Shown: positions 1,046-52,137 of the stretch, piece after piece
Numbering within the stretch: the stretch's first letter is position 1
Layout of the letters: every line of letters starts with the position of its first letter
Source: a virus
Strand: one strand, 5' to 3'
DNA: 64,000 nucleotides
Virus record (IMG/VR): IMGVR_UViG_3300025502_000011
The notes under the pieces: model-generated
Databases searched by the model: none
Seen by the model: only the letters and a program-made list of their open reading frames with translations
What the model was told of the DNA's origin: nothing
Made by a program: the position numbers and the translations under genes

Positions 1046-3373
1046 TTACTCGTAAATTGGCTGGTCAAACTCTTCCAGTAAAGTTTTTTTAATATATCCG
1101 TAAATGTCATGATATTCCATATCCATCCTCGGATACGGCATTGATTTGTATTTCGCCATTATACGCAATAATTCAAGATTTGTGCTATGCTTTGGAACTT
1201 TTAAAAATCTAGTGTAATCAAAAGCGCAATCTGGCTCATCGTTAAGATGTTTAATTATCTTAAATACTTTTGCTAGTGCGTTGGAGTCTTCATGGAAGTC
1301 TTCGGGTATAGAATCATAAATAGGAGTTGATTTAGGCTGTGTCCATTCTTTTTTTGCCCATTTTTTAGCAGTAAAAAAGATTTCATTTCCTTTGCTTCTA
1401 TAGCTAGTTTCTTGTATTTTATGGACTTCCGAGTTTTCACTTTTAATCGTTAACCTATTAGGATAAATTTTCTCATGTAAATCCATGCGGCTTTGTCGAT
1501 ATTTTGTGTTTAACCAGATTCTTCTTAAGGCTTCATTTTCTTTACAATGTTTATTATACAAAGAATATAGGTTATCTAAAGTTGTTTCCCCTTGACTTTG
1601 TGTTAGAAAATTAAACCATAAGTCAGACAGTTCTCGTGAGTACATTGTTTCGCGGGCTCTATTCTCACTTCGTCCAGAATTATCTGAAGGGATTCGATAT
1701 GTTAGAATTTCAGACTGGTCATCATAATCTCCCCACCTGTCGACACGGCCTACTCTTTGAAGAGTAGCTTCTGGAGACAGGCAACTTTCAATCAAATGCC
1801 TAAAAGAAACATCTAAAGATGCCTGTGCTATTGGGCTCGCTATTACGTGTTCTTTTTCAATATTTCTGTCGGATTGCTTTCCATAGTTTTGAAGAATAAC
1901 GCTTAATCGCGCTTGATTGTCGTCGTCCTCAAATTTTCCATGAAACAAAATAGTATCTTCATTGTGTTTGTGCTTATTTCTTTGACACTCAACTATAGAA
2001 TTAGAGATAAAAAGAACAGGGCTTTTTTTACTTTCAGATATTCTAGAACGCCCCTCTTTTGTAGTGAGTTTGTATGATTTATTGTGGACAGCAGGAGCAT
2101 GTTCAAATTTTCCAGGCAAATGGGCTGTTGAGTTGTCAAATGAATCCCAATAAACTGATAAATCAAGTGGGGTTGCGGACAGCAGTAAAGAGCGTCCGTT
2201 TGTCATCTGATGTCTTACCTTCATTAGATTTATAAAACCAGCCAGTAAAGCCCCGTCCGACACTAGCTCATGATACTCATCAAATACAACATCTGCATCG
2301 GATACCATTAATAAATCAATATCGTTACAATGCTCTTTTGTCGGACGTAAAAAGTTATCTACGTTGGTTACAATGATATCGCTTGAAAACTTTATTCCTA
2401 AATCTGAATTTGAGGCCTGTTGTTTTCCAGCGTAATATAATTCTACTGAAGTTTCAATTCCTGCATTTTTAAGCTCTCTTAAGATGTTGTGGTACACTGA
2501 TTGTGCCACAGCATTTCTTGGACACACCCAAATAAGCCGTTTATTGTTGACAGTGCTCCAAAGTAAACCTAGAAGTGTTTTTCCGTATCCAGCAGGGGCG
2601 TTGATTTGAACAGTCTTAAACGAGGTCGTCCTAGATGCTAAAGCAACTTGTTGTGTCCATCTTTTTTCATGTCCAGGATATGGGCATTTAGTAAAAGCGT
2701 AACGGTGTTGTTGAATCAGTCGTTCATTTATAGTTTTTTTAATTTCATCAACTGTAAAATCTCCTAATTCACTAACTAAGTGGTCAGCTCTTACCACGCA
2801 CATGCGAATAATCGTGTTGTCAACGTTGAGGTCGCTCGTCTCGTTAAAATCTCTAATATAGTAATGAGGGCTTGATGTTTCAGCTATTCTTGGCCTATCA
2901 AGGACTTGGCCAGGAAATAATTCTTCGACGAATTCAATCATTCTATCGATAGAATTATCTTTCTTCTTCCGAACCCACTCAAGAATAGACGCATCTGTGT
3001 GCTTGCCCATTACATTGTTAATGCCGTGATGCCAGTATACTGCTTCAGCAACTTGTCTTAGCTCCTCTGAGTCAAAGCTGATGTACATTCTTACAAATGC
3101 CCATCCCACTTCATTGTGCGAAAAAATAATGTCTTTTTTCTTTGTTTTAGTGGATTTACCATTTAAAGAGTTTCGGAGTAAAGTTTGAAACTCGGTTTCG
3201 GCTTTTCCAATATCATGAAGAAGCGCCGCTTTGCGGATAACTGATATAAAATGTTTTTTTTCTGTATCTGAGGTAACTATAACTGAGTCGGCAATATATT
3301 CCGCAACCTCAGCAACCTTTCGACTGTGCTCAATCAGGGTTTCGCCAGTACTTTTTGCTAATAACTCATCCAT
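1046..3373 (-). CDS. cas3: CRISPR-associated HD nuclease/SF2 helicase Cas3
   Basis: HD domain (HSRKV, LLHDIGK, SHNEVG, WHHG, RADH) fused to SF2 helicase motifs (APAGYGKT, DEYH, SAT, QRVGRVDR). Confidence 0.92.
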   Translation of the reverse strand: MDELLAKSTGETLIEHSRKVAEVAEYIADSVIVTSDTEKKHFISVIRKAALLHDIGKAETEFQTLLRNSLNGKSTKTKKKDIIFSHNEVGWAFVRMYISFDSEELRQVAEAVYWHHGINNVMGKHTDASILEWVRKKKDNSIDRMIEFVEELFPGQVLDRPRIAETSSPHYYIRDFNETSDLNVDNTIIRMCVVRADHLVSELGDFTVDEIKKTINERLIQQHRYAFTKCPYPGHEKRWTQQVALASRTTSFKTVQINAPAGYGKTLLGLLWSTVNNKRLIWVCPRNAVAQSVYHNILRELKNAGIETSVELYYAGKQQASNSDLGIKFSSDIIVTNVDNFLRPTKEHCNDIDLLMVSDADVVFDEYHELVSDGALLAGFINLMKVRHQMTNGRSLLLSATPLDLSVYWDSFDNSTAHLPGKFEHAPAVHNKSYKLTTKEGRSRISESKKSPVLFISNSIVECQRNKHKHNEDTILFHGKFEDDDNQARLSVILQNYGKQSDRNIEKEHVIASPIAQASLDVSFRHLIESCLSPEATLQRVGRVDRWGDYDDQSEILTYRIPSDNSGRSENRARETMYSRELSDLWFNFLTQSQGETTLDNLYSLYNKHCKENEALRRIWLNTKYRQSRMDLHEKIYPNRLTIKSENSEVHKIQETSYRSKGNEIFFTAKKWAKKEWTQPKSTPIYDSIPEDFHEDSNALAKVFKIIKHLNDEPDCAFDYTRFLKVPKHSTNLELLRIMAKYKSMPYPRMDMEYHDIYGYIKKTLLEEFDQPIYE

Positions 3374-10041: not shown

Positions 10042-10560
10042 TTACGGCTGTATGTTTAGCAACTCTTTTTCTCTTTTTCTAATACTTCTATAATCTATAA
10101 AGTTATGTGTTCCTTTATTCGCTTTTTCGCCAAATATTATAATACTCATTCCCATCCATAAACCTCGTGGTTCATCATTAAAATTTACTTCACCGTTTAT
10201 AAAACGTATTTCTGCATCAATCATAGTTTCTGCCCACCATTTTGTATTACTTCTTACTGGTATTAAGCAAACTTTTGTGCCACCATTTATTAACGCTTCG
10301 TTATGTGCTTTTTTAACCCATTTACTTAAATTTCTATCAAATGGAGGGTTCATCCAACAATTACCAATCCAATCTTTATTTAAAGAATTATCTTCTTTAG
10401 TCCAGTATTTTGGTAATTTATGATTTAATGAACTTGCACAAACATCAGTAGTTATTGCAAACTCTTTTATTAAAGGTTGTACAATCGTTTTAGGTGTACT
10501 ATACTCAATGCTTTTACTCTCAAAAGAGTTGTTTTTATTTCCAATTTTATCTATTCCCAT
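10042..10560 (-). CDS. Cassette-borne phage N6-adenine methyltransferase (Dam-phage family)
   Basis: YSTP, DVCAS, W.GNCWMNPPF, LIPVRSNTKWW motifs. Confidence 0.85.
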   Translation of the reverse strand: MGIDKIGNKNNSFESKSIEYSTPKTIVQPLIKEFAITTDVCASSLNHKLPKYWTKEDNSLNKDWIGNCWMNPPFDRNLSKWVKKAHNEALINGGTKVCLIPVRSNTKWWAETMIDAEIRFINGEVNFNDEPRGLWMGMSIIIFGEKANKGTHNFIDYRSIRKREKELLNIQP

Positions 10561-11322: not shown

Positions 11323-11898
11323 CTACGAAAGTACTTCGATTGAAAGTATTTTAATTTTAGTTTCATCGAATATCAATAAATTTAATTCTTTTGTTTCGAT
11401 GATATATGTTCCGTCATAACCATTAAGTTTCAACCAATCATATACCCAAGTTTGCTCAATTGATGAATAATCACCATCCAATAAATTATTATACTTTCTA
11501 TCAATGTCATCATCAGGAAATTTATCCTCGATATATTCTAAAAGATTTTTACCAATTACATAATATTCTACGCCAATTTTATCATTTACTTTACTTTTTT
11601 CATAATACATTAATAAATCATAGGTTGATGGTAACTTTCTAAAATCTATAATATTATTAGTTAAAACTTGAATTTTGTAAATATGTGGTGAATAATTACC
11701 AGCATAGTATTTAGCAAATTCAATATTTGATGTTAAAAATATTGGTGATTTGTAATTTATATCAAATAAAGTTCCGTTTTTTATCTTGAATTTATCGAAT
11801 TTTTCTTTAGAACCGTGATACCAAGTATTATCATTTACTATAAGTTGCTCATTAAGATATTCTCTAATCGTTGTCACTATAAACTTTCTCAATTCCAT
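11323..11898 (-). CDS. Cassette-borne protein with an ADP-ribosyltransferase-like fold and head-targeting leader
   Basis: WYHGS..F..F and IFLTSN..FAKYYAG ART-like motifs; leader MELRKFIVTTIREYLNE. Confidence 0.55.
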   Translation of the reverse strand: MELRKFIVTTIREYLNEQLIVNDNTWYHGSKEKFDKFKIKNGTLFDINYKSPIFLTSNIEFAKYYAGNYSPHIYKIQVLTNNIIDFRKLPSTYDLLMYYEKSKVNDKIGVEYYVIGKNLLEYIEDKFPDDDIDRKYNNLLDGDYSSIEQTWVYDWLKLNGYDGTYIIETKELNLLIFDETKIKILSIEVLS

Positions 11899-11949
11899 TC
11901 TTTTATATATAGATATTCCAAAATTAAATTTCTGACAAACAAACCGTAC

Positions 11950-12019
11950 TGGTGCTAACGCTATGTATATTCCAGTTTTGTGAAAAACAAAACCGATAAC
12001 ATACATTTAACGTTATGCT
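11950..12019. mobile_element. attC-like site E
   Basis: 11956-12012 is identical over 57 bp to 12683-12739 in site F. Confidence 0.88.
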
Positions 12020-13300: not shown

Positions 13301-13990
13301 TTAAAAAACTCTCTGTGTTAGTCTCTCAAATCCGTCCTTCCATGTTTCGTGTTTATCAAATCTTTCACCACAACCAGTGGTTCCACCTTTCCAGCTTCCT
13401 CTTCTCTTTCCTACTTCTGAAGAGAATTCAACGTCAATTGTACGACTCACTTGGCTGAACATAGTTGTTCGTTTGAACCATCTCATTCTCCATTCTCTCT
13501 CCGAGATGGATATATCGGCATTAACCACGTTCAGTTCTCCATTTGGAGTGTGCTTATCAACATACGGCATATTAGTTCTCCACATTTTCTCTTTCCATTC
13601 GTCTTTATAAAAGTCTTGTTTGTCGCCTTTTATTGAATGAACCCATGTTCCATCCTTCAGTTTAATGCTGTGGCGAACGTGGTCGAGATTCCAGGGCATA
13701 TTAATGTATTTAGATTTCTTTCCGTAACGAATAACAAAGCTCTGACTCTGCCAACCATCCTGATACCAATAACAGCCGTACTGTTCTGAGTCGCCGTAAT
13801 CCTTTCTCTTGTGTGACCAGGGCATACTCCAAAACAGGCTCCAGAATAGGAATGCTATATGGATTTGGGGTCTCTCATCATCAGAATACCCGTGGCACTC
13901 GTAAGTTAAGTGAAAAGCAACTGGTTTTCCCCAGCTGTATCTATAAAATGATATATTATCGTTTTCAAACTTCTTTGTGGGGTTTCGCAT
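13301..13990 (-). CDS. Phage hypothetical protein
   Basis: 229-aa ORF. Confidence 0.7.
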   Translation of the reverse strand: MRNPTKKFENDNISFYRYSWGKPVAFHLTYECHGYSDDERPQIHIAFLFWSLFWSMPWSHKRKDYGDSEQYGCYWYQDGWQSQSFVIRYGKKSKYINMPWNLDHVRHSIKLKDGTWVHSIKGDKQDFYKDEWKEKMWRTNMPYVDKHTPNGELNVVNADISISEREWRMRWFKRTTMFSQVSRTIDVEFSSEVGKRRGSWKGGTTGCGERFDKHETWKDGFERLTQRVF

Positions 13991-14062
13991 TCTACAAATG
14001 TAATCAATTTTACAAATATAAAAACTGTTCGAAGGGCGGCCTTTTTCTATCTGTAATTCAAG

Positions 14063-14134
14063 AGGGGCGTAGGGGGTTCGAACCCCTGACGTACAGGGTT
14101 AAAGCCTGATGTTCTACCTCTGAACTAACGCCCC
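14063..14134 (-). tRNA. tRNA with anticodon UUA (ochre suppressor)
   Basis: GGGGCGT-TA-GTTC AGAGGTA GAAC-A-TCAGG CTTTAAC CCTGT-ACGTC-AGGGG TTCGAAC CCCCT-ACGCCCC-T; canonical cloverleaf with a 7-nt anticodon loop. Confidence 0.88.
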
Positions 14135-15106: not shown

Positions 15107-15510
15107 GGCAAGTGACCATATTTATGAAAATACTTTAATGGACGTTTCAATTTTCCATTAATCCAAAAACCCCATTTTCGTCGTGGCTTAAACGCTAATA
15201 CAAATGTCCAGCAAGACACATCTTTAGGAAGCACTACATTATGTATATGTTCTGCTTTTCTAAAGCGAATGCTTCCTTGTCTTAACTTATCGATTCCATT
15301 TGGGCTTATGTCTAAATAGCCTCCTTTCAGTATGAAAGTGATAAAATCCCAAGCATGGTCATGCTGGTGCGCGATTGGTTCACTTCTTATGAAGTTGTGA
15401 ACTCGGAACGAAAATAAGTAGAAATTGAACACCCATCTGTAAGCATACGGGCAACTTTTTTCACCTAAAGCTTCGTTCCATCTGAACTGAATTGGTCTGA
15501 ACTTTTTCAT
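15094..15510 (-). CDS. Cupin-like protein
   Basis: HQHDHAW.F...ILKGGY and H.HNV motifs. Confidence 0.7.
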   Translation of the reverse strand: MKKFRPIQFRWNEALGEKSCPYAYRWVFNFYLFSFRVHNFIRSEPIAHQHDHAWDFITFILKGGYLDISPNGIDKLRQGSIRFRKAEHIHNVVLPKDVSCWTFVLAFKPRRKWGFWINGKLKRPLKYFHKYGHLPCED

Positions 15511-16019
15511 TTCTTGATTCGGATTATAGCTGAGGGTACAGTTTTGTAATCCTCAACAAATGAATAATCTGGGACCATTGTCACGGAGTAGTTCTTATCT
15601 TGAAGCCACTCACGGAATTCTTTGTGCAGTTAAGTCTCTCCAACCATCCAAAAAGGAGATGTTAAGCTTGAGATTGTTCCGCCTGGTGCAAGTTGGTCAT
15701 ACATGTGCATGATGTGTTTGCAATCGACATTGTCTCGAAAGTTAGGACAGGCAATGACGTAATCATATGGTGTCTGGGCTTCGAATCGGAAGAAGTCTGA
15801 GCCAACCAACTCATATTCTTTTTCTTTCAGTGTGACTCGGCATTCTTGATTAAGTTCTACACAGTCAATTTTACACTGTTGGAATTTTTCTTGAACCCCG
15901 TCCGCCAATACTCCTGTGCCTGCAGATGGTTCTAGTATTCTCGCTCCAGGCTTCGGGTTTAATCTCTCACATAAAGCATCAATCACCACTTGGGGTGTAA
16001 TTCTGTTTGTCTCTACCAT
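15507..16019 (-). CDS. SAM-dependent methyltransferase with an internal in-frame TAA (15630-15632)
   Basis: ILEPSAGTG, VELN, ACPNF; past the TAA the frame continues LHKEFREWL...VPDYSFVED..TVPSAIIRIKK to a TGA overlapping the next ATG. Confidence 0.8.
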
Positions 16020-16458: not shown

Positions 16459-16601
16459 TCCTGGAGGAAGGGCTCGAACCCCCGACCCCCACCGTTCGAT
16501 TCCAATTCTCTACTTCACAACCCTTGTGGCCACGCAGGTTGCGTTTCAATCCTTTTCCTCATTTATCAGGGTGGTGCTCTAACCAACTGAGCTACTCCAG
16601 G
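16459..16601 (-). tRNA. tRNA-Ile(GAU) with a 69-nt insertion at position 37/38
   Basis: CCTGGAG/CTCCAGG acceptor and canonical D and T arms; removing 16495-16563 restores CCACC CTGATAC GGTGG. Confidence 0.8.
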
Positions 16602-16651: not shown

Positions 16652-16731
16652 TGGTGGTGAGGGAAGGACTTGAACCTTCGACCTCCAGGGTTTTAAAGCC
16701 TGGTGCTCTGAACCAACTGAGCTACCTCACC
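16652..16731 (-). tRNA. tRNA with a 9-nt anticodon loop (CUUUAAAAC)
   Basis: GGTGAGG/CCTCACC-A-CCA; CCAGG CTTTAAAAC CCTGG; canonical D and T arms. Confidence 0.8.
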
Positions 16732-16871: not shown

Positions 16872-16945
16872 TGACAGGAGAAAGATTCGAACTCTCGTCC
16901 CCAGGTTTTTAAGGCCTGGTGCTCTAACCGCTGAGCTATCCCGTC
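16872..16945 (-). tRNA. tRNA with a 9-nt anticodon loop (CCUUAAAAA)
   Basis: GACGGGA/TCCTGTC-A; CCAGG CCTTAAAAA CCTGG; T-arm GAGAG TTCGAAT CTTTC. Confidence 0.8.
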
Positions 16946-16994
16946 TGGTGGCGGATTCAGGACTTTAACCTGAACTGGTGCTTATGCATCCGCC
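16946..16994 (-). ncRNA. Mini tRNA-like RNA, family A copy 3 (CCA encoded)
   Basis: GGCGGA-TGCATAAGCACCAG-TTCAGG TTAAAGT CCTGAA-TCCGCC-ACCA; its CCA abuts G1 of the next tRNA. Confidence 0.8.
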
Positions 16995-16998
16995 GTAG

Positions 16999-17066: not shown

Positions 17067-17486
17067 TCATGCGGCTTCTTTACAATTACAACTCTTGAGA
17101 GTTGGTTGATTCGTAAATTCTTTGAAAGCAAGTGGTAGACTAGATAACCAACGGGCAGATTCTTTCCCTGGTTCTACGGTAATAGACGTGAACTGGTTGT
17201 CGAGGTCAGGCTCCTGGAAGGAACTGAAATTAATACCTTTTTGCGTGAGTTTGTCTCGGAGCTCGATGAGTTCTTGCTCGTCTTTGACTGATAAGAATCC
17301 TAAATATGGATTCGATAACCATTTTTCATAAATGGCTGTGTATTCTTGATTGAATACGTGGAATGAATGCATTCCTTGAGTTGCCTGCGCTCCAGGAGCG
17401 AGGTCTCGTCTTACGACGATGTAAAGCTTTAAGTTTTTCTTCTCTGTAGAAGGGTGTACTTACTGGTTGTCTAATGCTTTTTTCAT
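17067..17486 (-). CDS. Peptidyl-tRNA hydrolase II (PTH2)-like protein with an in-frame TAA at codon 9
   Basis: MKKALDNQ*VHPSTEKKNLKLYIVVRRDLAPGAQATQGMH...LSVKDEQEL...FQEPDLDNQFTSITV; ends TGA TGA. Confidence 0.8.
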
Positions 17487-20601: not shown

Positions 20602-22122
20602 TTATTCCTTAGTTGCAAGCTCAGCAAAATCAACATAATTGTTGATAGTGTTGATAAGCGCTCTTTTGTCGACTTCTAGATTGTCAATGACATCAAAAAT
20701 CTTTTCAGAGAATCCTCTTAGCGCGAATACGTTCTTCTCTGGGAACTGCATGCTTCCGCTTGCAGCCAAGTTGAACTCGTAAACTTTACAGTCCTGAGCA
20801 CCGTACTTCTTCTTGTACGCTGCAAACTGAGTTTTTGGAGTATTGTACTCCATCCACGCTTGCATGTCCGAGAAGATGAATACACGGTCGTATTTCGCCT
20901 TCATCTTAACGAAGATGTCTTGGAAGTTCGTTCCGTGACCAACCCTGTACTTGCCAACGTTGCCGTAGCCTTGGTTTGTATCAACAATCCAGTTTGCCAT
21001 ACCCATTACTGAGTCATTCACGTTAACTGGAAGGTACATTGCGTGTGTTCCAAACGACATTACATCAGCATCACTAGCCTTGGCCATCATGGCTCCAAAT
21101 AGAGCTGCCACTTTATTCCTGTAAGTTTTACCTCCAGCAATTGGGCAATCCATAGAACCTGACAGGTCAATTACGACTGCAGTGTTTCCATCAAACTTTG
21201 GAATGTTAGAACAAGCTAGGTCTACGGCGGTGTTAAGCGCTCTTTGAACTTTCTTAGACTTTGTTCCAGTCAACACTGTAATCTCGTCGAGTGCAGTGAT
21301 GTATCTGAATGGAAGAATCAGTGACTTCTTAATTCTTGCCTCTGTAGTCAACAGCTCGCATGCCTTGTTAAGAACCTCGTCAGAAGCATCTTGGATGATG
21401 TTTCTAAGGTTTCTTAGAAGAGCAAACTGTCCAATCTTACCTGACATAACCAAGTCAGACCAAGCCTCAGCTTTGTTTGCGGCTTTCTCCTCAGAGGTCT
21501 TCGCTCCCTGGCCAGCTGCGGACAGCTTAGACTCGAAAGTGTTTTCACTCTTTAGGGTTCCAGCAACAAGCTCGGCAAGTGCCTTCTCGTTTCTAGCCGT
21601 TCCTTTTGGACGAACCAAGTTTACAACGTCAACAAGCGATACTTCATTCTTGTCTCCTCTGTACTTGGCAAGCTGGTATGCATCGAACTTTCCGAAAGCT
21701 TTCTTGAAACCTTTCTTTAGCGCGTTTGGCAAAGATGCTTTCTTACCCTCTCTACCGAAGTAGTAGGACATAATCTCAGTCATGTCGTCTGGACGACGTA
21801 CAATAGCTGCGTAAAACTCTTTAGCCCAGGCCTTACCTGAGGCGTGCTTAGCGATTTCACCCGCAAGTACGTGGGTGATAGAACGCATTCCAAACTCGTT
21901 ACGGGCATAGACAGCCGCCTTTGCTGCGAACTCTGGGTCCACTTTGCTAAGAACGGATGTCAACTCCTTTATTTGGTCTCCTGCCTTCGAATAGAAGTCA
22001 TCAGACACAAACGAGTTCAACAGAATCGTCACAAGCTCTAACTCTGGAGTCGACTTATAAGCCTCTCCTCCCGCTTTGTTGGTAGTCATTTCTACCTTTG
22101 ATTTTTCGTTAAATTTTGACAT
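20602..22122 (-). CDS. Ro60/TROVE-domain RNA-binding protein
   Basis: TTNKAGGEAY, FAAKAAVYAR.EFGMRS, FDAYQLAKY, FALLRNLRNI, LPFRY..A and vWA IDLSGSM motifs; likely start MSKFNEK. Confidence 0.93.
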   Translation of the reverse strand: MSKFNEKSKVEMTTNKAGGEAYKSTPELELVTILLNSFVSDDFYSKAGDQIKELTSVLSKVDPEFAAKAAVYARNEFGMRSITHVLAGEIAKHASGKAWAKEFYAAIVRRPDDMTEIMSYYFGREGKKASLPNALKKGFKKAFGKFDAYQLAKYRGDKNEVSLVDVVNLVRPKGTARNEKALAELVAGTLKSENTFESKLSAAGQGAKTSEEKAANKAEAWSDLVMSGKIGQFALLRNLRNIIQDASDEVLNKACELLTTEARIKKSLILPFRYITALDEITVLTGTKSKKVQRALNTAVDLACSNIPKFDGNTAVVIDLSGSMDCPIAGGKTYRNKVAALFGAMMAKASDADVMSFGTHAMYLPVNVNDSVMGMANWIVDTNQGYGNVGKYRVGHGTNFQDIFVKMKAKYDRVFIFSDMQAWMEYNTPKTQFAAYKKKYGAQDCKVYEFNLAASGSMQFPEKNVFALRGFSEKIFDVIDNLEVDKRALINTINNYVDFAELATKE

Positions 22123-22226
22123 CTCGTCGTTGTTTATAATTGTTGTTATTCTATTAATTCTTTGTTTTTGGCGCATAAAAAAAAAGCACCACATCTTTGC
22201 AGAGGGTGCTTTTTCGAAAAATATAA

Positions 22227-24495: not shown

Positions 24496-26518
24496 TCGTA
24501 TTTCTTTTTTGGATAAACACCTTTTTATCTTTCTCTCTATAAGAGAAGGTTATTGAGGCTCCTTCTTTTATTTCGCCCTTGAGGACAGCTTGCGCAAAAG
24601 TGTTCTCCAAATGTGATGTTATAGCTCTTTTAAGGGGTCTTGCTCCAAACTTCTTATCATAACCTACGTCTGCTATGAAATCTTTCACACTGTCTGACAC
24701 TTTAACCTTATAACCTCTTTGTTCAATTCTGCTTATAACAACTTGTAGTTCCAAGCTAACAATGTCCATTATCTCGTCCTTTGTAAGTGGCATGAAGATT
24801 ATTTTCTCGTCAATGCGGTTGATTAGCTCTGGTCTGAAAAAATTTCCAAGCTCTCCCATGATAAGTTTCTCAATATCTTCTTGCTCTGTTTCTTTTGCAG
24901 CAAATCCAAGTGATTTATTCTTAAACAGCTTATCAGTTCCAATATTTGATGTCATAATGATGACAGTGTTTTTAAAGTTAATCTCTTGCCCATGATTATC
25001 CGTCAGTTTGCCTTCGTCAAAAATTTGAAGCATAATATTGAATACGTCTGGATGCGCTTTCTCTATTTCATCAAACAATAGTATGGAGTAAGGTTGGTTC
25101 TTAATTTTTTCAGTCAACAAACCCTTGTCTTCATGGCCAATGTAACCAGGGGGAGACCCAATCAACTTAGCGACCGATATCTTCTCCATGTATTCACTCA
25201 TATCAAACCTAATGAAAGACTCTGGGAGGTCAAACATGTACTCAGCTAGCATTTTGCTTAAGTATGTCTTACCTACTCCTGTTGAACCTAAAAACAATAA
25301 AGATGCAATTGGTTTGTTTGGGTCCTGTATGCCTACGCGAGACCTTTGGACTGCCTCACAAATTTTTTCAATAGCTACTTTCTGTCCGATGACTCTATCT
25401 GAAAGGTATGTTTGCATTTTCAAGAGCTTATTGCTTTCATTATCTGTAAGCTTAGACACAGGTATACCTGTGTGGGATGCGATGATTGCTGCTACGTCTT
25501 TTTTTGTGATAGGTTGTTTGTCATCTTTTAAGGACTGCTTCCATTTTTCAGTCATATTCTGGATGTTCTGCTTAGTGCTTCGCTCTTTATCGCGAAGTTT
25601 TGCTGCGACTTCATATTGCTGCTTCGCTACGGCTTTTTTCTTATCTTGTTCAATCTCTTGAAGACCTTCTTCGGCATCTTTTAGGTCTTTAGGTATTTCT
25701 CTAAATCCAAGCTTTGCTTTTGAGCCGACTTCATCTAAGACATCTATTGCTTTATCTGGGAAATTCCTGTAGTTAATATATCTATCTGACAGCTCAACTA
25801 TAAATTCTAATGTTTCGTCTGAAAATGATACGCCGTGATAATCTTCATAGCGTTCCTTTATTTGTTTTAGAATTTCAACCGTCTGCTTCGCAGTTGGAAC
25901 CGACAGCATGACTTTCTGAAATCTTCTATCAAGCGCTGAGTCATTAGCAATTGTTTTTTTGTGTTCCTCTAAAGTTGTTGCTCCAATAACACGCATTGTA
26001 CCACGAGCTAGCTCTGGTTTAATGATTTGAGATGCATCCATTGAACCAGATGCACCACCAGCTCCCATGAGATTGTGAATTTCATCAATAAATATGATAA
26101 CATCGTCATTTTTTACTGCTTCGTCAATAATAGCCTTCATTCGCTCTTCGAACTGGCCACGGTACTTTGTTCCTCCGACCAAGGAGGACAAATTTAATTC
26201 AATAATTCTTTTATTGAGTAACCATCTATCAGTTTTGCGATTTACGATTCGCAAAGCCAGCCCTTCGACTAATGCTGTTTTTCCTGTTCCAGCCTCTCCT
26301 ACGATTATGGGGTTATTCTTCTTTCTTTTGTTGAGAATTTGGACCATCATGTCGATTTCTTCTTCTCGCCCTATTACAGGGTCGAGTTCTCCTTTTGCTG
26401 CTAGCAGCGTTAGGTCTCTACCAAAATGTTCTAATACCTGCGTGGAACCCTCTGTGAAAGAAGGGCCCATCCCTTTTTCATCGTCATCAGGGTCTTGAGA
26501 AAATGCTCGTCCTGCCAT
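24473..26518 (-). CDS. clpB: ClpB/ClpC-type double AAA+ ATPase lacking the N-terminal Clp-N domain
   Basis: LDPVIGR, GEAGTGKT, KYRGQFEERMK, FIDEIH, GSTGVGKT, LFDEIEKAH, GARPLKR. Confidence 0.9.
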   Translation of the reverse strand: MAGRAFSQDPDDDEKGMGPSFTEGSTQVLEHFGRDLTLLAAKGELDPVIGREEEIDMMVQILNKRKKNNPIIVGEAGTGKTALVEGLALRIVNRKTDRWLLNKRIIELNLSSLVGGTKYRGQFEERMKAIIDEAVKNDDVIIFIDEIHNLMGAGGASGSMDASQIIKPELARGTMRVIGATTLEEHKKTIANDSALDRRFQKVMLSVPTAKQTVEILKQIKERYEDYHGVSFSDETLEFIVELSDRYINYRNFPDKAIDVLDEVGSKAKLGFREIPKDLKDAEEGLQEIEQDKKKAVAKQQYEVAAKLRDKERSTKQNIQNMTEKWKQSLKDDKQPITKKDVAAIIASHTGIPVSKLTDNESNKLLKMQTYLSDRVIGQKVAIEKICEAVQRSRVGIQDPNKPIASLLFLGSTGVGKTYLSKMLAEYMFDLPESFIRFDMSEYMEKISVAKLIGSPPGYIGHEDKGLLTEKIKNQPYSILLFDEIEKAHPDVFNIMLQIFDEGKLTDNHGQEINFKNTVIIMTSNIGTDKLFKNKSLGFAAKETEQEDIEKLIMGELGNFFRPELINRIDEKIIFMPLTKDEIMDIVSLELQVVISRIEQRGYKVKVSDSVKDFIADVGYDKKFGARPLKRAITSHLENTFAQAVLKGEIKEGASITFSYREKDKKVFIQKRNTNAKNKAE

Positions 26519-47947: not shown

Positions 47948-48598
47948 TTATGCTCCACAGCCAAAGCAATCAAAATCGCTTTCTTCTGGTCTAGCAGGTA
48001 GGTCATCGTAATCAGCTGTTGGTTCGTCTAATTGTTCTTCTTGCGCTTTTTTTGTCACAGTAAACTGAATAGCATCTGCAGCAGGCTTTGTCCGTAAGTA
48101 ATACATTCCAGTCTTAAGTCCTTTGTTCCATCCATAGAAGTGCATTGAGGTTAATTTTTGAAAATCTGGTTCGTCAATAAACACATTCATAGACTGACTT
48201 TGACAAATAAATGCACCTCTATCTGCTGCCATGTCAAGAATATTTTTCTGCTTAATCTCCCAAACAGTTTTGTAAACATCCTGGATATCTTCTGGAATCT
48301 CATCGATTCCTTGGACAGAGCCTCTGTTAGCGATGATTTTATTTCTAAGATTAAAGTCCCAGATTTTCAATTCGATTAATCTTTCAACCAAGTGAGGGTT
48401 CACCAATACAAAGTTTCCAGAAAGAACTTTACGCTCGTAAATGTTTGAAGTAAAAGGCTCAAAACATTCGTTGTTTCCTAGGATTTGTGCTGTGTTATGA
48501 CTTACGCATCCGTTCCCCATTATGTAATGCTCCTCTCCTGGTACCGCTAAATCCCATGTAGGCTTTACTTTGCTTGGTGTTATTTTTTTTACTTTCAT
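47948..48598 (-). CDS. nrdA: Ribonucleotide reductase class Ia alpha, C-terminal fragment fused to a split-intein C-half (35 aa)
   Basis: MKVKKI...TWDLAV...[12 protein letters not shown]|[13 protein letters not shown]...[11 protein letters not shown]...CFGCGA. Confidence 0.93.
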
Positions 48599-49863
48599 TT
48601 TATATTGTTTTTAAGAAGAAAGTCTTCTACTTTCTCGTTGTTTACCTCTTTAGTTGAGCTGCTCCAAAGCTCTAAATATTTATACCCTTTCTCTAAAGCT
48701 AAGTCCTTCTTTCTCTGGTCTATGTTGTGTATTTCATCTGCAGACATTTTAACTCTATTAATACCTGAGCCTTTTAATCTCCAAGATTCCCAATTTTTCC
48801 ACTCCTCCTTACTTAGCCTTTCTGGGTTTGGATGATATCTTTCGCCATGATACTCAATTATGATTTTTCGCTCAGGAATAGAAAAATCATAAAACCTCAT
48901 GCAAGCGGAGTATTCGTCGTAAATACCTAACTCCTTACTCTCATCTATACCCACAAGTACTTCGAGTTCGCTTGAAAACTTATCAAACAGCGGTTGAAAA
49001 AACACAAGACTCTCTTTAGAAGCTCTTCCGAAATGTACTTGTTTCTTTAAAAAAATCTGCTCCACTTTGTTAATCGATTCTTTCTTTGACAAGCCTTTTG
49101 ATATCCAATAATCCACTGAAGAGGTGTTTAAATTTTCTGTATGAAACTTTTTTCTCATCTCTTCCGCATCCTCCTTGCTATATCCTTTATTAATCCAGTG
49201 TTTAGAAGTGAATACGCTTGTTTCTTTTTTTGCATCAACGTACTTATCCCACATATCTTTACCTTTATCTTCTCCGTGCTGTTGAATATACTTTTCTTTC
49301 GTGTGCTTTGAAGAATCTTGAAACTCTTTAAACAAGCTCAACCCTTTCTTTTCTCCATGTCTTTCTATAAAACCTTTCTCAGACGTTGCTTTGGAAGATT
49401 TGAAATTATCAATCTCAACCAGTGCTTCTTTCTCTGAAAAGCCCTTCTCAACCCAGTACTCCACTTTATAAGGAGTAACCCTGCTGCTGTAGGCATTTTC
49501 TTTTTTAATATTACCTAGCTCTAAACCCCATTTTAAATGGTAAAACTTATCTGAGTTAGAATCTGTCTTATTGGTTAATCTATACTTTACATATTTTTTA
49601 AACCTTTCTCCATCAAAACTCTCAGACAACTCTTTTATGTTATCCCTTACTTTATGGCCAGGCATTTCTTTGCTTTGAATTACTTCAAAAGCAGAAATAA
49701 AGTGACTCACATCTAAGGACTCATGCATTTTAATTAATGCATACCCTGCCTTGATGTTGTCAAATATTAATTTGTCCATTTCAATGTTTGAGTTTCTTCT
49801 GAAAAAATCAGATACCCCCTTTAAAGTTCTTATCTCTGTATTATTAATTTTAAACCTATCCAT
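48595..49863 (-). CDS. Free-standing homing endonuclease (Vsr/PD-(D/E)xK-like) between the nrdA halves
   Basis: Repeated YW..KG.S..EA units; C-terminal FYDF....[10 protein letters not shown]...D..K...A...GY. Confidence 0.8.
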
Positions 49864-49894
49864 TCTGTGCTATTTATTAATAAATAGCACAGAA
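49863..49894. promoter_or_regulatory. Perfect 32-bp palindrome covering the endonuclease initiation region
   Basis: TTCTGTGCTATTTATTAATAAATAGCACAGAA is its own reverse complement. Confidence 0.85.
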
Positions 49895-49920
49895 CTTTAG
49901 GCTGTCATGCCAGACGCAAC

Positions 49921-52137
49921 TTAGTTTTCAATTAGTTCTTCACATTTAATAGTTAGAATATCATCGTCTTCTTTTAACTCATTTACATAAACCCACTCAT
50001 CTCCTGTAGTTCGACTCACAAGAAATCTATGATTTCCCGTAGCCTCCATTGTAGACCCATCTTCCATTTCTATATGGTAGACCTGCTTATGCCCATTGTA
50101 GTACATCTTATCAGTTTCAACCTCTCCATTCATCGTGTCAACAATAACTGACTCTTTAAGAGTAATCCAATGTGGAGCATCAACCGACTCAATAGTTTTC
50201 CAATCAATTCCACTTTGTTCTAAAATAGATTTGAAATTATTCACTTTTCCTTGGCTAAAGAACTCAGTGTCAATTACTTGACAACTTGCTGTAGGCATTG
50301 GAGCCAACAGCAGAGAGTTTCTAGCTCCAAACTCTTTCACTTTGTCCTTTAGACCATTCCAGTCCAAATTTAGATTCGGTGAGAGCTGAGACTCTTCCCA
50401 GTAATCAAACTGGAAAATGCCTTTGCTTAGGTCTGAGCCTGGGAACGTTTCATATGCTCCATCTTTCATAGCTTCCTCCATAGAGGCCTCCATAGAAGCG
50501 AAGTAAATCATTTCGAAGATTTCCCTATTAAGTTGCTTTGCTACCTCCGAATCGAATGCCACGTGCATCTTAGCGAACACATCGGCTAAACCTTGAACAC
50601 CAATGCCAATTGGTCTGTGACGTAGGTTTGATTTCTTAGCCTCCACAACTGGGTAGAAATTTCGGTCGATAACCTTGTTAAGGTTTTTTGTGACCACCTT
50701 TGTAACCTCATATAGCTTATCAAAATCAAACTCGTACACTTTCTTGCTTGGGGTCTTAGCTGTGTTTGTTTGCTTCAAATACATTGGCAACGCAATAGAT
50801 GCAAGATTACAAACAGCTACTTCATCTGGAGAAGTGTACTCCATAATTTCTGTACAGAGATTAGAGGACTTGATTGTTCCCAAGTGCTTTTGATTAGATT
50901 TATGGTTAGCGGCATCCTTGTAAAGCATGTATGGAGTTCCTGTTTCAATTTGAGATTCAAGAATCTTGAACCAAATGTCTTGAGCAGGGATTGTCTCACG
51001 CCCTTTGCCTTGCCTCTCATATTTGGTGTACAACTTCTCAAAGTCATCTCCATAGCAGTCTGAAAGCCCAGGGCACTCGTTAGGGTCCATTAAAGTCCAG
51101 CTTGCGCCTTCATCAACTCGTTTCATAAACAAGTCTGGAATCCACATCGCGTAAAACAAATCTCTCGCACGCATCTCTTCTTTTCCTGTGTTCTTTTTCA
51201 AATTAAGAAACTCGCGTATGTCTGCATGCCAAGGCTCTAAGTAGATTGCAAAAGAACCTTTTCGTTTTCCTCCACCCTGGTCAACATAACGAGCTGTGTC
51301 GTTAAAGTTTCTAAGCATTGGAACAATTCCATTAGAGGTTCCGTTGGTTCCTTTAATATAAGAGCCTTTGGCTCTTATGTTGTGAATGCTCAACCCTATC
51401 CCTCCAGCTGATTGTGAAATCAATGCACACTGCTTTAAAGTGTCATATATTCCATCAATAGAATCATCTTTCATCGTTAACAGGAAACAGGAAGACATTT
51501 GCGGTTTTGGAGTCCCTGCATTAAACAATGTAGGTGTTGCATGAGTAAAATACTTCATGGATAATAAATCATAAGTCTCTATAGCTTTGTCAATATCATC
51601 CATGTGAATACCTACTGCAACGCGCATAAAAAGATGTTGAGGCCTTTCTGCTGGTGTTCCATGAGTCTTAAGAAGATACGAGCGTTTCATTGTCATGAAT
51701 CCAAAATAGTCAAGCTGAAAATCTCGGTCTTGAATGATTGCCCCATTAAGTCTTGCACTGTTTTTTTTCACCACCGCATAGGCTTCCTCGCTAATAAGCG
51801 GTGCTGGTGCTTTTGTGATTGGGTCGACATACTCGTAGAGGTCTTTTATTGTCTGAGAAAACAATTTCTTTGTTTCCTTGTGAAGTGAAGTAATGGCTAT
51901 TCTGGCTGCCAACTTTGAGTAATCTGGATGTGTTGTAACAAGAACGGCTGCCTTCTGAGCTGCTAATTCATCTAATTGCGTTGTTGATACACCGTCGAAT
52001 ATTCCTTGAATAACTTTTTGGGCTACTTCTGAATAATTAACTGCCTCCGATAAATCATAGCATTGCTTTTTAATTCTAGCAGCTATCTTATCAAACCTAA
52101 CTTCTTCCTTAGAGCCGTTGCGTTTAGTAACTTGCAT
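49921..52137 (-). CDS. nrdA: Ribonucleotide reductase class Ia alpha, N-terminal fragment (618 aa) fused to a split-intein N-half (120 aa)
   Basis: ATP cone, [36 protein letters not shown]|CQVIDT...ATGNHRFL. Confidence 0.95.

Follow-up and report, generated by a model that had tools for sequence, protein, structure and literature searches.

The stretch of viral DNA analysed here, hereafter the window, comprises 64,000 nucleotides (nt) of IMG/VR record IMGVR_UViG_3300025502_000011 and corresponds to bases 30320–94319 of a single virus record of 141,051 bp with 38.7% G+C. The window contains a gene for a transfer RNA (tRNA) with the anticodon UUA, the ochre-suppressor type, at positions 14063–14134, together with two protein-coding genes that lie within 3.4 kb of it. 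These are a small gene resembling N6-adenine methyltransferases (the MTase-like gene) at 15507–16019 and a gene resembling peptidyl-tRNA hydrolase 2 (the Pth2-like gene) at 17067–17486, the tRNA gene being located 3.3 kb downstream of the latter. All features described within the window are on the minus strand. Each of the two genes contains a single in-frame TAA and ends in TGA, and the preliminary description of the window, which had noted two TAA-interrupted genes with TGA ends close to the tRNA, was correct in this respect. The internal stop is positioned late in the MTase-like gene and early, at codon 9, in the Pth2-like gene. Both genes are treated below as putative clients of the tRNA.

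The tRNA gene was examined using ARAGORN, as the preliminary description had proposed, and the Rfam model RF00005. ARAGORN returned a tRNA-Stop(tta) of 73 nt at 14062–14134 (−), and RF00005 matched the 72 nt from 14063 to 14134 (−) over model positions 1–71 of 71 with a score of 66.2 bits (E = 3.6e-12), relative to a gathering score of 29 bits. The predicted molecule is a class I tRNA with a 7 bp acceptor stem (GGGGCGU/ACGCCCC), a D arm (UAGUUCAGAGGUAGAAC) comprising a 4 bp stem and the loop AGAGGTA in which G18–G19 are present, an anticodon stem of 4 bp plus one U·U, a variable loop of 5 nt and a T arm (AGGGG-UUCGAAC-CCCCU) with a 5 bp stem, the loop of which, TTCGAAC, fits TTCRA. The discriminator base is U and the terminal CCA is not encoded. 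The anticodon, 5'-UUA-3' at 14100–14102, was read directly from the sequence and lies within the 7 nt loop C-U-U-U-A-A-C, with U33 present and a purine at position 37. The Rfam score and the regular cloverleaf confirm the earlier assignment of a canonical ochre-type tRNA with the loop CUUUAAC at this location.

Relatives of the locus were reached through a protein-cluster search with two neighbouring genes combined with identity look-ups, which gave approximately nine lineages on short metagenome contigs. Single-protein scans of IMG/VR with the Pth2-like and MTase-like proteins gave no match, and exact and degenerate DNA patterns of the UUA tRNA had no match in IMG/VR or the metagenome contig collection, from which near copies may have been held back. 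A tRNA with the CUUUAAC loop was also found in lineages L005, L011 and L137, with near-identical copies in L012 and L013, and the four distinct copies (window, L005, L011 and L137) were aligned. The loop CUUUAAC and the D arm were unchanged across these four, and compensatory double changes were observed in 10 of the 21 stem pairs, with 98.8% of the cells paired. None of 500 shuffled controls performed as well, and structures slid by 1–3 columns gave only 0–2 such pairs. A decaying or accidental tRNA is unlikely because the stems co-vary while the anticodon loop stays fixed, and the alignment supports selection for tRNA function in this gene, with the UUA anticodon loop held constant.

The MTase-like gene begins with 129 codons (15633–16019) that are present as an open reading frame (ORF) in the ORF list and give weak matches to the Pfam families MTS and N6_Mtase. 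These are followed by the in-frame TAA (15630–15632), next to CTGCA, and by a 40-codon putative readthrough extension (15510–15629), which is identified by homology, by its substitution pattern and by a structural model. The final TGA (15507–15509) overlaps the ATG of the next gene in the sequence ATGA. A polyvalent protein from a Vibrio phage contains a domain with 35% identity to the MTase-like protein, and the alignment runs straight across the TAA. The extension is matched as far as its end by uninterrupted homologues (P0027–P0031; 172–190 residues, 43–49% identity), and because they vary in the TAA column, carrying T, D, P or E, this column is predicted to be a tolerant loop position. The TAA occupies the identical codon in seven lineages (window, L004/L005, L010, L011, L136, L137 and L138–140) with protein identities of 65–98%, and all seven keep the 40-codon extension and the ATGA ending.

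By its pattern of substitution the extension is under in-frame purifying selection. Comparison of the window with L011 gave 16.5 synonymous and 11.5 non-synonymous changes within the extension, at a ratio of non-synonymous to synonymous rates (dN/dS) of approximately 0.07, and this pattern reversed in both shifted frames. The constraint starts at the first codon past the TAA, 15 codons ahead of any ATG. An AlphaFold model of the MTase-like protein had a mean confidence (pLDDT) of 89.5 and placed a helix and two strands of the core sheet in the extension, so that the 129-residue product would be an incomplete fold. Superposition of the model on the catalytic domains of M.TaqI and CamA using Foldseek gave a TM score of 0.75, with an E-value of 1e-11 for M.TaqI. 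The protein contains the S-adenosylmethionine-binding motif LEPSAGxG and has C-P-N-F as motif IV instead of NPPF, the (N/D/S)PP(Y/F) type being expected of gamma-class N6-adenine methyltransferases, and it has no target-recognition domain.

The Pth2-like gene opens with an eight-codon leader, MKKALDNQ (17463–17486), which is conserved as M-K-K-x-L-D-N/H-Q in eight lineages with differences that are mostly synonymous. Codon 9 is the in-frame TAA (17460–17462), in the context CAG-TAA-GTA-CA, and it is TAA in all eight lineages that cover this site. The remainder (17067–17459) consists of a linker and a PTH2-family domain and terminates at a TGA (17067–17069) that is followed by a second TGA. The domain matched PF01981 with 28.9–29 bits, above the cut-off of 23, over profile positions 1–103 of 115; the match starts 10 codons past the TAA and the domain begins at KLYIVVRRDL. 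The protein is 34% identical to the peptidyl-tRNA hydrolase of mycobacteriophage Phabba. Members of this family usually start with M-x-K-L-Y-I-V-V, and here that methionine is gone, with N-L-K, N-F-K or N-D-K where the family has M-x-K. The region between the TAA and the domain contains no ATG, GTG or TTG, and the nearest upstream start is the ATG at 17486. Depending on the lineage the linker is 13, 12 or 11 codons long, with the frame kept every time, and its synonymous divergence (dS) is 0–0.19 in most lineages compared to 0.5–0.7 in the gene body. The consensus fold of the leader region was weak (−6.4 kcal/mol) and without covariation support. No conserved RNA structure was found 3' of this TAA, and a preference for particular sites would therefore have to lie in the adjoining nucleotides.

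All related contigs that cover either site have TAA as the internal stop and TGA as the final stop. The tRNA and the TAA of the MTase-like gene are also present on contigs from four other DNA sequencing runs, three of which include the TAA of the Pth2-like gene as well. Assembly or sequencing error is excluded because these independent runs do not show a single variant letter at these sites. A UUA anticodon reads UAA and, by wobble, UAG, but does not read UGA. Both client TAAs are followed by S-T-R-C-A (G/C-T-A/G-C-A), a sequence that follows none of the other 90 TAA terminators. Across the genome S-T-R-C-A follows 10 of 6546 TAA trinucleotides, of which only the two client sites lie in coding frames.

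The comparison with two outgroup phages, L143 and L144, provides what we regard as the strongest link between the tRNA and its putative clients. L143 is syntenic with the window (Ro60 ... NT5C ... Pth2, the last at 46% identity) and uses the standard code, with 14 of 18 terminators being TAA. In L143, codon 17 of the MTase homologue (L143:11718–12227) is an in-frame TAG and the terminator is TGA, and ATG-AGA-TAG stands in frame ahead of the Pth2 gene. Directly after this Pth2 gene are two tRNAs with the anticodon CUA (L143:10441–10631). The type of internal stop thus follows the anticodon, since TAA occurs with UUA in the window and TAG with CUA in L143, and the L143 module is the amber counterpart of the window module. 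The MTase gene was interrupted independently at two different codons, once in the window clade and once in L143. In L144 the MTase gene is intact and no suppressor tRNA was found within 20 kb.

The use of stop codons was examined across the complete record and within the window. The 155 predicted genes of the 141-kb record end in TAA (91 genes, 59%), TGA (42) or TAG (22), and of the minus-strand ORFs of at least 100 residues in the window 36 end in TAA, 16 in TGA and 9 in TAG. The coding density is normal under the standard code. The genome is not recoded, because the standard-code reading works and TAA remains the main terminator; the preliminary description had called TAA the main stop and had ruled out wholesale recoding, and both statements stand. 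There was no enrichment of nearby TAG or TGA back-up stops after the TAA-terminated genes and no base bias after the stop, and the record contained no recognisable release-factor domain. The whole genome was scanned for additional in-frame stops flanked on either side by coding signal, with a hexamer score only and on a record that is approximately 64% complete as estimated by CheckV, and only the two client TAAs were credible. Scans for sigma-70 promoters and terminators, the models for which are ill-suited to Bacteroidota, performed no better than shuffled sequence.

The same DNA was found in at least 24 metagenome runs from salt lakes. The record encodes ribonucleotide reductase (RNR), a primase-helicase, a Cas3-like HD helicase, a ClpB-like ATPase, a Ro60/TROVE protein and Acb3, together with at least 16 tRNA or tRNA-like genes. 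The INPHARED phage set contained no close relative of the phage. The primase of the phage is similar to those found in phages of Flavobacteriia. The RNR small subunit has 74–77% identity to its counterparts in Crocinitomicaceae and further Flavobacteriales, which makes a host from the Crocinitomicaceae/Flavobacteriales group probable.

The amino acid that the tRNA would insert was considered from the tRNA body and from the synthetases of the phage, and lysine and asparagine are the lead candidates. The L011 orthologue is 83% identical to Escherichia coli tRNA-Lys, the two having the acceptor stem, T arm and A73 in common. None of the copies resembles the tRNA-Lys of the candidate host family. 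The best phage tRNA matches of the UUA tRNA were mixed (Gly, Asn, Gln, Thr and Lys). Comparison with the tRNA set of a Crocinitomicaceae genome by BLAST and global alignment gave Phe and Gly as the best matches, at 0.72–0.76, and as no clear isotype emerged the assignment of an amino acid from the host tRNAs was dropped. Outside the window the phage encodes a class IIb synthetase of 398 residues resembling asparaginyl-tRNA synthetase (AsnRS) at L142:1198–2394 (+), equivalent to G000:C1:138853–140049, which matched TIGR00457 with 371 bits and has an OB-fold anticodon domain. ARAGORN called no tRNA-Asn in the 141-kb record. Class IIb synthetases rely heavily on U35, and the UUA anticodon keeps U35. 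Asparagine is the second candidate because an AsnRS-like enzyme is present without a tRNA-Asn and U35 is retained, and the phage enzyme could charge the UUA tRNA.

The tRNA and its putative clients are surrounded by further tRNA-like and counter-defence genes. Two tRNA-like genes at 16655–16731 and 16872–16945, called as tRNA-Leu(taa) by ARAGORN, combine a short variable loop with an anticodon loop of 9 nt (CUUUAAAAC or CCUUAAAAA). The relatives keep both genes with varying loops (CGUUAAAAA, UGUUAAAAC and CGUCAAACA), and neither gene looks like an ordinary decoding tRNA. A tRNA-Ile(GAU)-like gene at 16459–16601 contains a 69-nt insert after the anticodon; the insert carries a conserved GCGUGGCCACAAGGG hairpin and recurs in all relatives as well as in a second, neighbouring tRNA-like gene. 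Located 3.6 kb upstream of this tRNA-like array is the Ro60/TROVE gene (20602–22194; PF05731, E = 1e-25, and a vWA_Ro60 domain), and a part of the array at 16892–16996 gave a weak match to the Y RNA-like YrlA (22 bits, E = 0.5), so some of the tRNA-like elements may be Y-RNA modules. Outside the window, the tRNA-Arg(cct) of 85 nt (G000:C1:22202–22286) and the tRNA-Trp(cca) of 84 nt (24683–24766) have lengths unusual for their class, which suggests that more aberrant or insert-bearing tRNAs are present elsewhere in the genome.

Genes of counter-defence type are found at 1046–3373 (Cas3-like HD nuclease-helicase), 10042–10560 (Dam-like N6-adenine MTase), 11323–12006 (ART-PolyVal ADP-ribosyltransferase domain) and 13301–13990 (Acb3, an inhibitor of the cyclic oligonucleotide-based antiphage signalling system), the last of these being the next gene downstream of the UUA tRNA. 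The gene for the RNR large subunit is divided across 47948–52137. The ORF at 49921–52137 covers barrel positions 1–395, with an N-terminal splicing motif of an intein at its end, the ORF at 47948–48598 covers positions 392–523, and between them is an ORF of 422 residues (48595–49863) without a Pfam match. This arrangement looks like a split or invaded intein.

We consider it likely that the UUA tRNA is a functional, phage-borne ochre suppressor that has been selected to decode one UAA in each of at least two genes of this tRNA-rich module. According to this model the tRNA would compete with release factors at UAA. Where readthrough failed, the hydrolase messenger RNA would yield only an eight-residue peptide and the MTase would be made without its helix and two core strands, while readthrough at both client sites would give the full-length Pth2-like hydrolase and the MTase-like protein. 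Translation of both clients would then stop at UGA, which the UUA anticodon is expected to leave unread, and elsewhere most ribosomes would still terminate at UAA. That termination elsewhere would largely persist is suggested by TAA still being the main stop and by the lack of extra back-up stops. The suppressor is probably a weak one or acts preferentially in the local context (UAA followed by G/C-U-A/G-C-A), either of which would explain how the phage can keep TAA at 59% of its gene ends. The preliminary description had called the readthrough regulated and partial, and we infer the same from these TAA ends without back-up stops and from the rare downstream context that the two sites share. 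It may be speculated that the hydrolase and the MTase are needed only when the tRNA set of the phage is active.

Several observations weigh against this interpretation. With 91 of 155 genes ending in TAA and no back-up stops behind them, an efficient suppressor should be costly. Unlike the L011 copy with its resemblance to E. coli tRNA-Lys, the copies of the tRNA in the window, L005 and L137 have U73 and different acceptor stems. Co-occurrence of the tRNA with the TAA codons can be counted only in the four lineages whose short contigs reach the tRNA locus, and the S-T-R-C-A motif was defined after inspection of both sites and is a lead and not a test. About one third of the genome is absent from the record, and further clients or factors may be missing with it. 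A more elaborate version of the suppressor model is that of a self-contained translational lock and key, in which a dedicated UAA-reading tRNA, possibly charged by the AsnRS-like enzyme of the phage, would switch on a tRNA hydrolase and an adenine methyltransferase by context-specific readthrough only where the tRNA is active, with the lock co-evolving with the key. We put this version forward tentatively, as conceivable but not quite probable.

The alternative explanations differ in what reads the two UAA codons, or in whether they are read at all. Both could be read by near-cognate host tRNAs (Gln, Lys or Tyr) or through slow, context-dependent termination, the UUA tRNA having another main role, for example in host takeover, if TAA stops of the host were read through globally, or in countering defences that target tRNAs, where it would serve as a decoy or a substitute. 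The rare conserved downstream context alone could raise basal readthrough. Many genes of the module are of the anti-defence type (Acb3, the ART domain and the Cas3-like helicase), and it also holds the aberrant tRNA-like genes with 9-nt anticodon loops; there are known phage tRNAs that counteract anticodon nucleases (PMC11464382). Host readthrough is however difficult to reconcile with an internal stop that changes together with the anticodon (TAA and UUA here, TAG and CUA in L143), or with an anticodon loop that is invariant while the stems co-vary, and a decoy leaves unexplained why TAA and TAG are avoided as terminators of the clients in every lineage. We therefore regard this explanation as unlikely. 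Less likely still is that no readthrough takes place, with MKKALDNQ being a regulatory mini-ORF comparable to the lambda bar minigene, Pth2 being re-initiated at a non-canonical codon, the MTase working as a 129-residue fragment or as two pieces and the tRNA being unrelated. The leader is short and conserved as a peptide, most lineages show a degree of nucleotide conservation in the linker that is unusual and would suit a region of initiation, and start sites in Bacteroidota need no Shine-Dalgarno sequence. However, there is no conserved start-like codon between the TAA and KLYIVV, where the ancestral M-x-K is now N-L-K, N-F-K or N-D-K, and three independent linker lengths are all in frame with the leader. 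In the MTase-like gene the constraint from the first post-TAA codon affects residues that belong to a conserved fold, which is equally at odds with a functional fragment.

Reassignment of TAA to an amino acid, whether across the genome, within a block or during a phase of infection, is very improbable. The combination of a suppressor tRNA with a synthetase gene does resemble the code-change gene sets of recoded phages (10.1101/2021.08.26.457843), but the normal coding density under the standard code, the many genes that end in TAA and the fact that the hexamer-score scan of the roughly 64% complete record gave no more than two in-frame TAAs flanked by coding signal all argue against it, and surveys have reported no TAA-recoded phages (PMC13037316). 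Finally, the client genes could be decaying pseudogenes or products of sequencing error and the tRNA a chance mutant of an ordinary tRNA, to which we attach almost no weight. Single nonsense mutations do occur frequently in phage accessory genes. However, the same TAA codon is found in seven (MTase-like) or eight (Pth2-like) lineages down to 65% protein identity with purifying selection downstream of it, the sequence is identical in independent runs, and the tRNA is conserved with covariation.

The suppressor model was compared with known systems that decode stop codons. The laboratory ochre suppressors of E. coli likewise combine an ordinary elongator tRNA body with a UUA anticodon: supG and supL, which the L011 copy calls to mind, are tRNA-Lys in which the anticodon UUU has become UUA, while supB is derived from tRNA-Gln and supC from tRNA-Tyr. 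These suppressors are weak, and hence tolerated by the cells. The window tRNA, by contrast, occurs naturally and is encoded by a virus; it is conserved between lineages, has conserved client codons to pair with, and carries U as the discriminator. The autoregulation of prfB (release factor 2) through an in-frame UGA and the programmed readthrough of viruses (Q-beta A1 protein and murine leukaemia virus gag-pol) are similar in that, with an in-frame stop placed early or late in the gene, the output hinges on termination versus alternative decoding and that the local context matters. However, prfB involves a +1 frameshift and the two viral examples use host tRNAs, whereas here the virus itself appears to provide a tRNA dedicated to the decoding.

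Suppressor tRNAs encoded by phages are known mainly from recoded groups, among them the crAss-like, Lak, Garnet, Topaz and Jade phages, in which TAG is reassigned to Gln (code 15) or TGA to Trp (code 4) (Borges et al., 10.1101/2021.08.26.457843; PMC9523058). As in the model proposed here, a phage suppressor tRNA permits in-frame stops within a standard-code host, sometimes together with a phage aminoacyl-tRNA synthetase. In the recoded phages this affects tens to hundreds of mostly late genes and the reassigned stop is avoided as a terminator, whereas here two genes are affected and TAA is still the main terminator. Closer in kind are the orphan suppressor tRNAs of standard-code phages, such as the tRNA-Sup-TTA of Klebsiella phage phiKp24, for which targets were not identified (PMC8386662), and the two CUA tRNAs of the Xanthomonas jumbo phage XacN1, for which the authors state explicitly that no targets were identified (PMC5852040). 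The window likewise has a suppressor-type tRNA in a standard-code phage, but with two conserved targets within 3.4 kb. No published work was found in which a suppressor tRNA is linked to a Pth2 or methyltransferase gene gated by a stop codon. Phage suppressor tRNAs and programmed readthrough are thus both known, and what is new is a system that would be gene-specific, of the ochre type and with two clients, in a genome where TAA is still the main stop.

The proposed system leaves the puzzle of how a virus tolerates the suppression of its own commonest stop codon, or confines it by context. If UAA followed by S-U-R-C-A proves sufficient for readthrough, the motif would be useful for engineering site-selective readthrough. 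Orphan suppressor tRNAs are regularly annotated in standard-code phages, and the genes described here give such a tRNA nameable targets. If the lock-and-key version is correct, these orphan tRNAs would act as switches for the expression of particular genes, and would be neither relics nor an early stage of a change in the genetic code.
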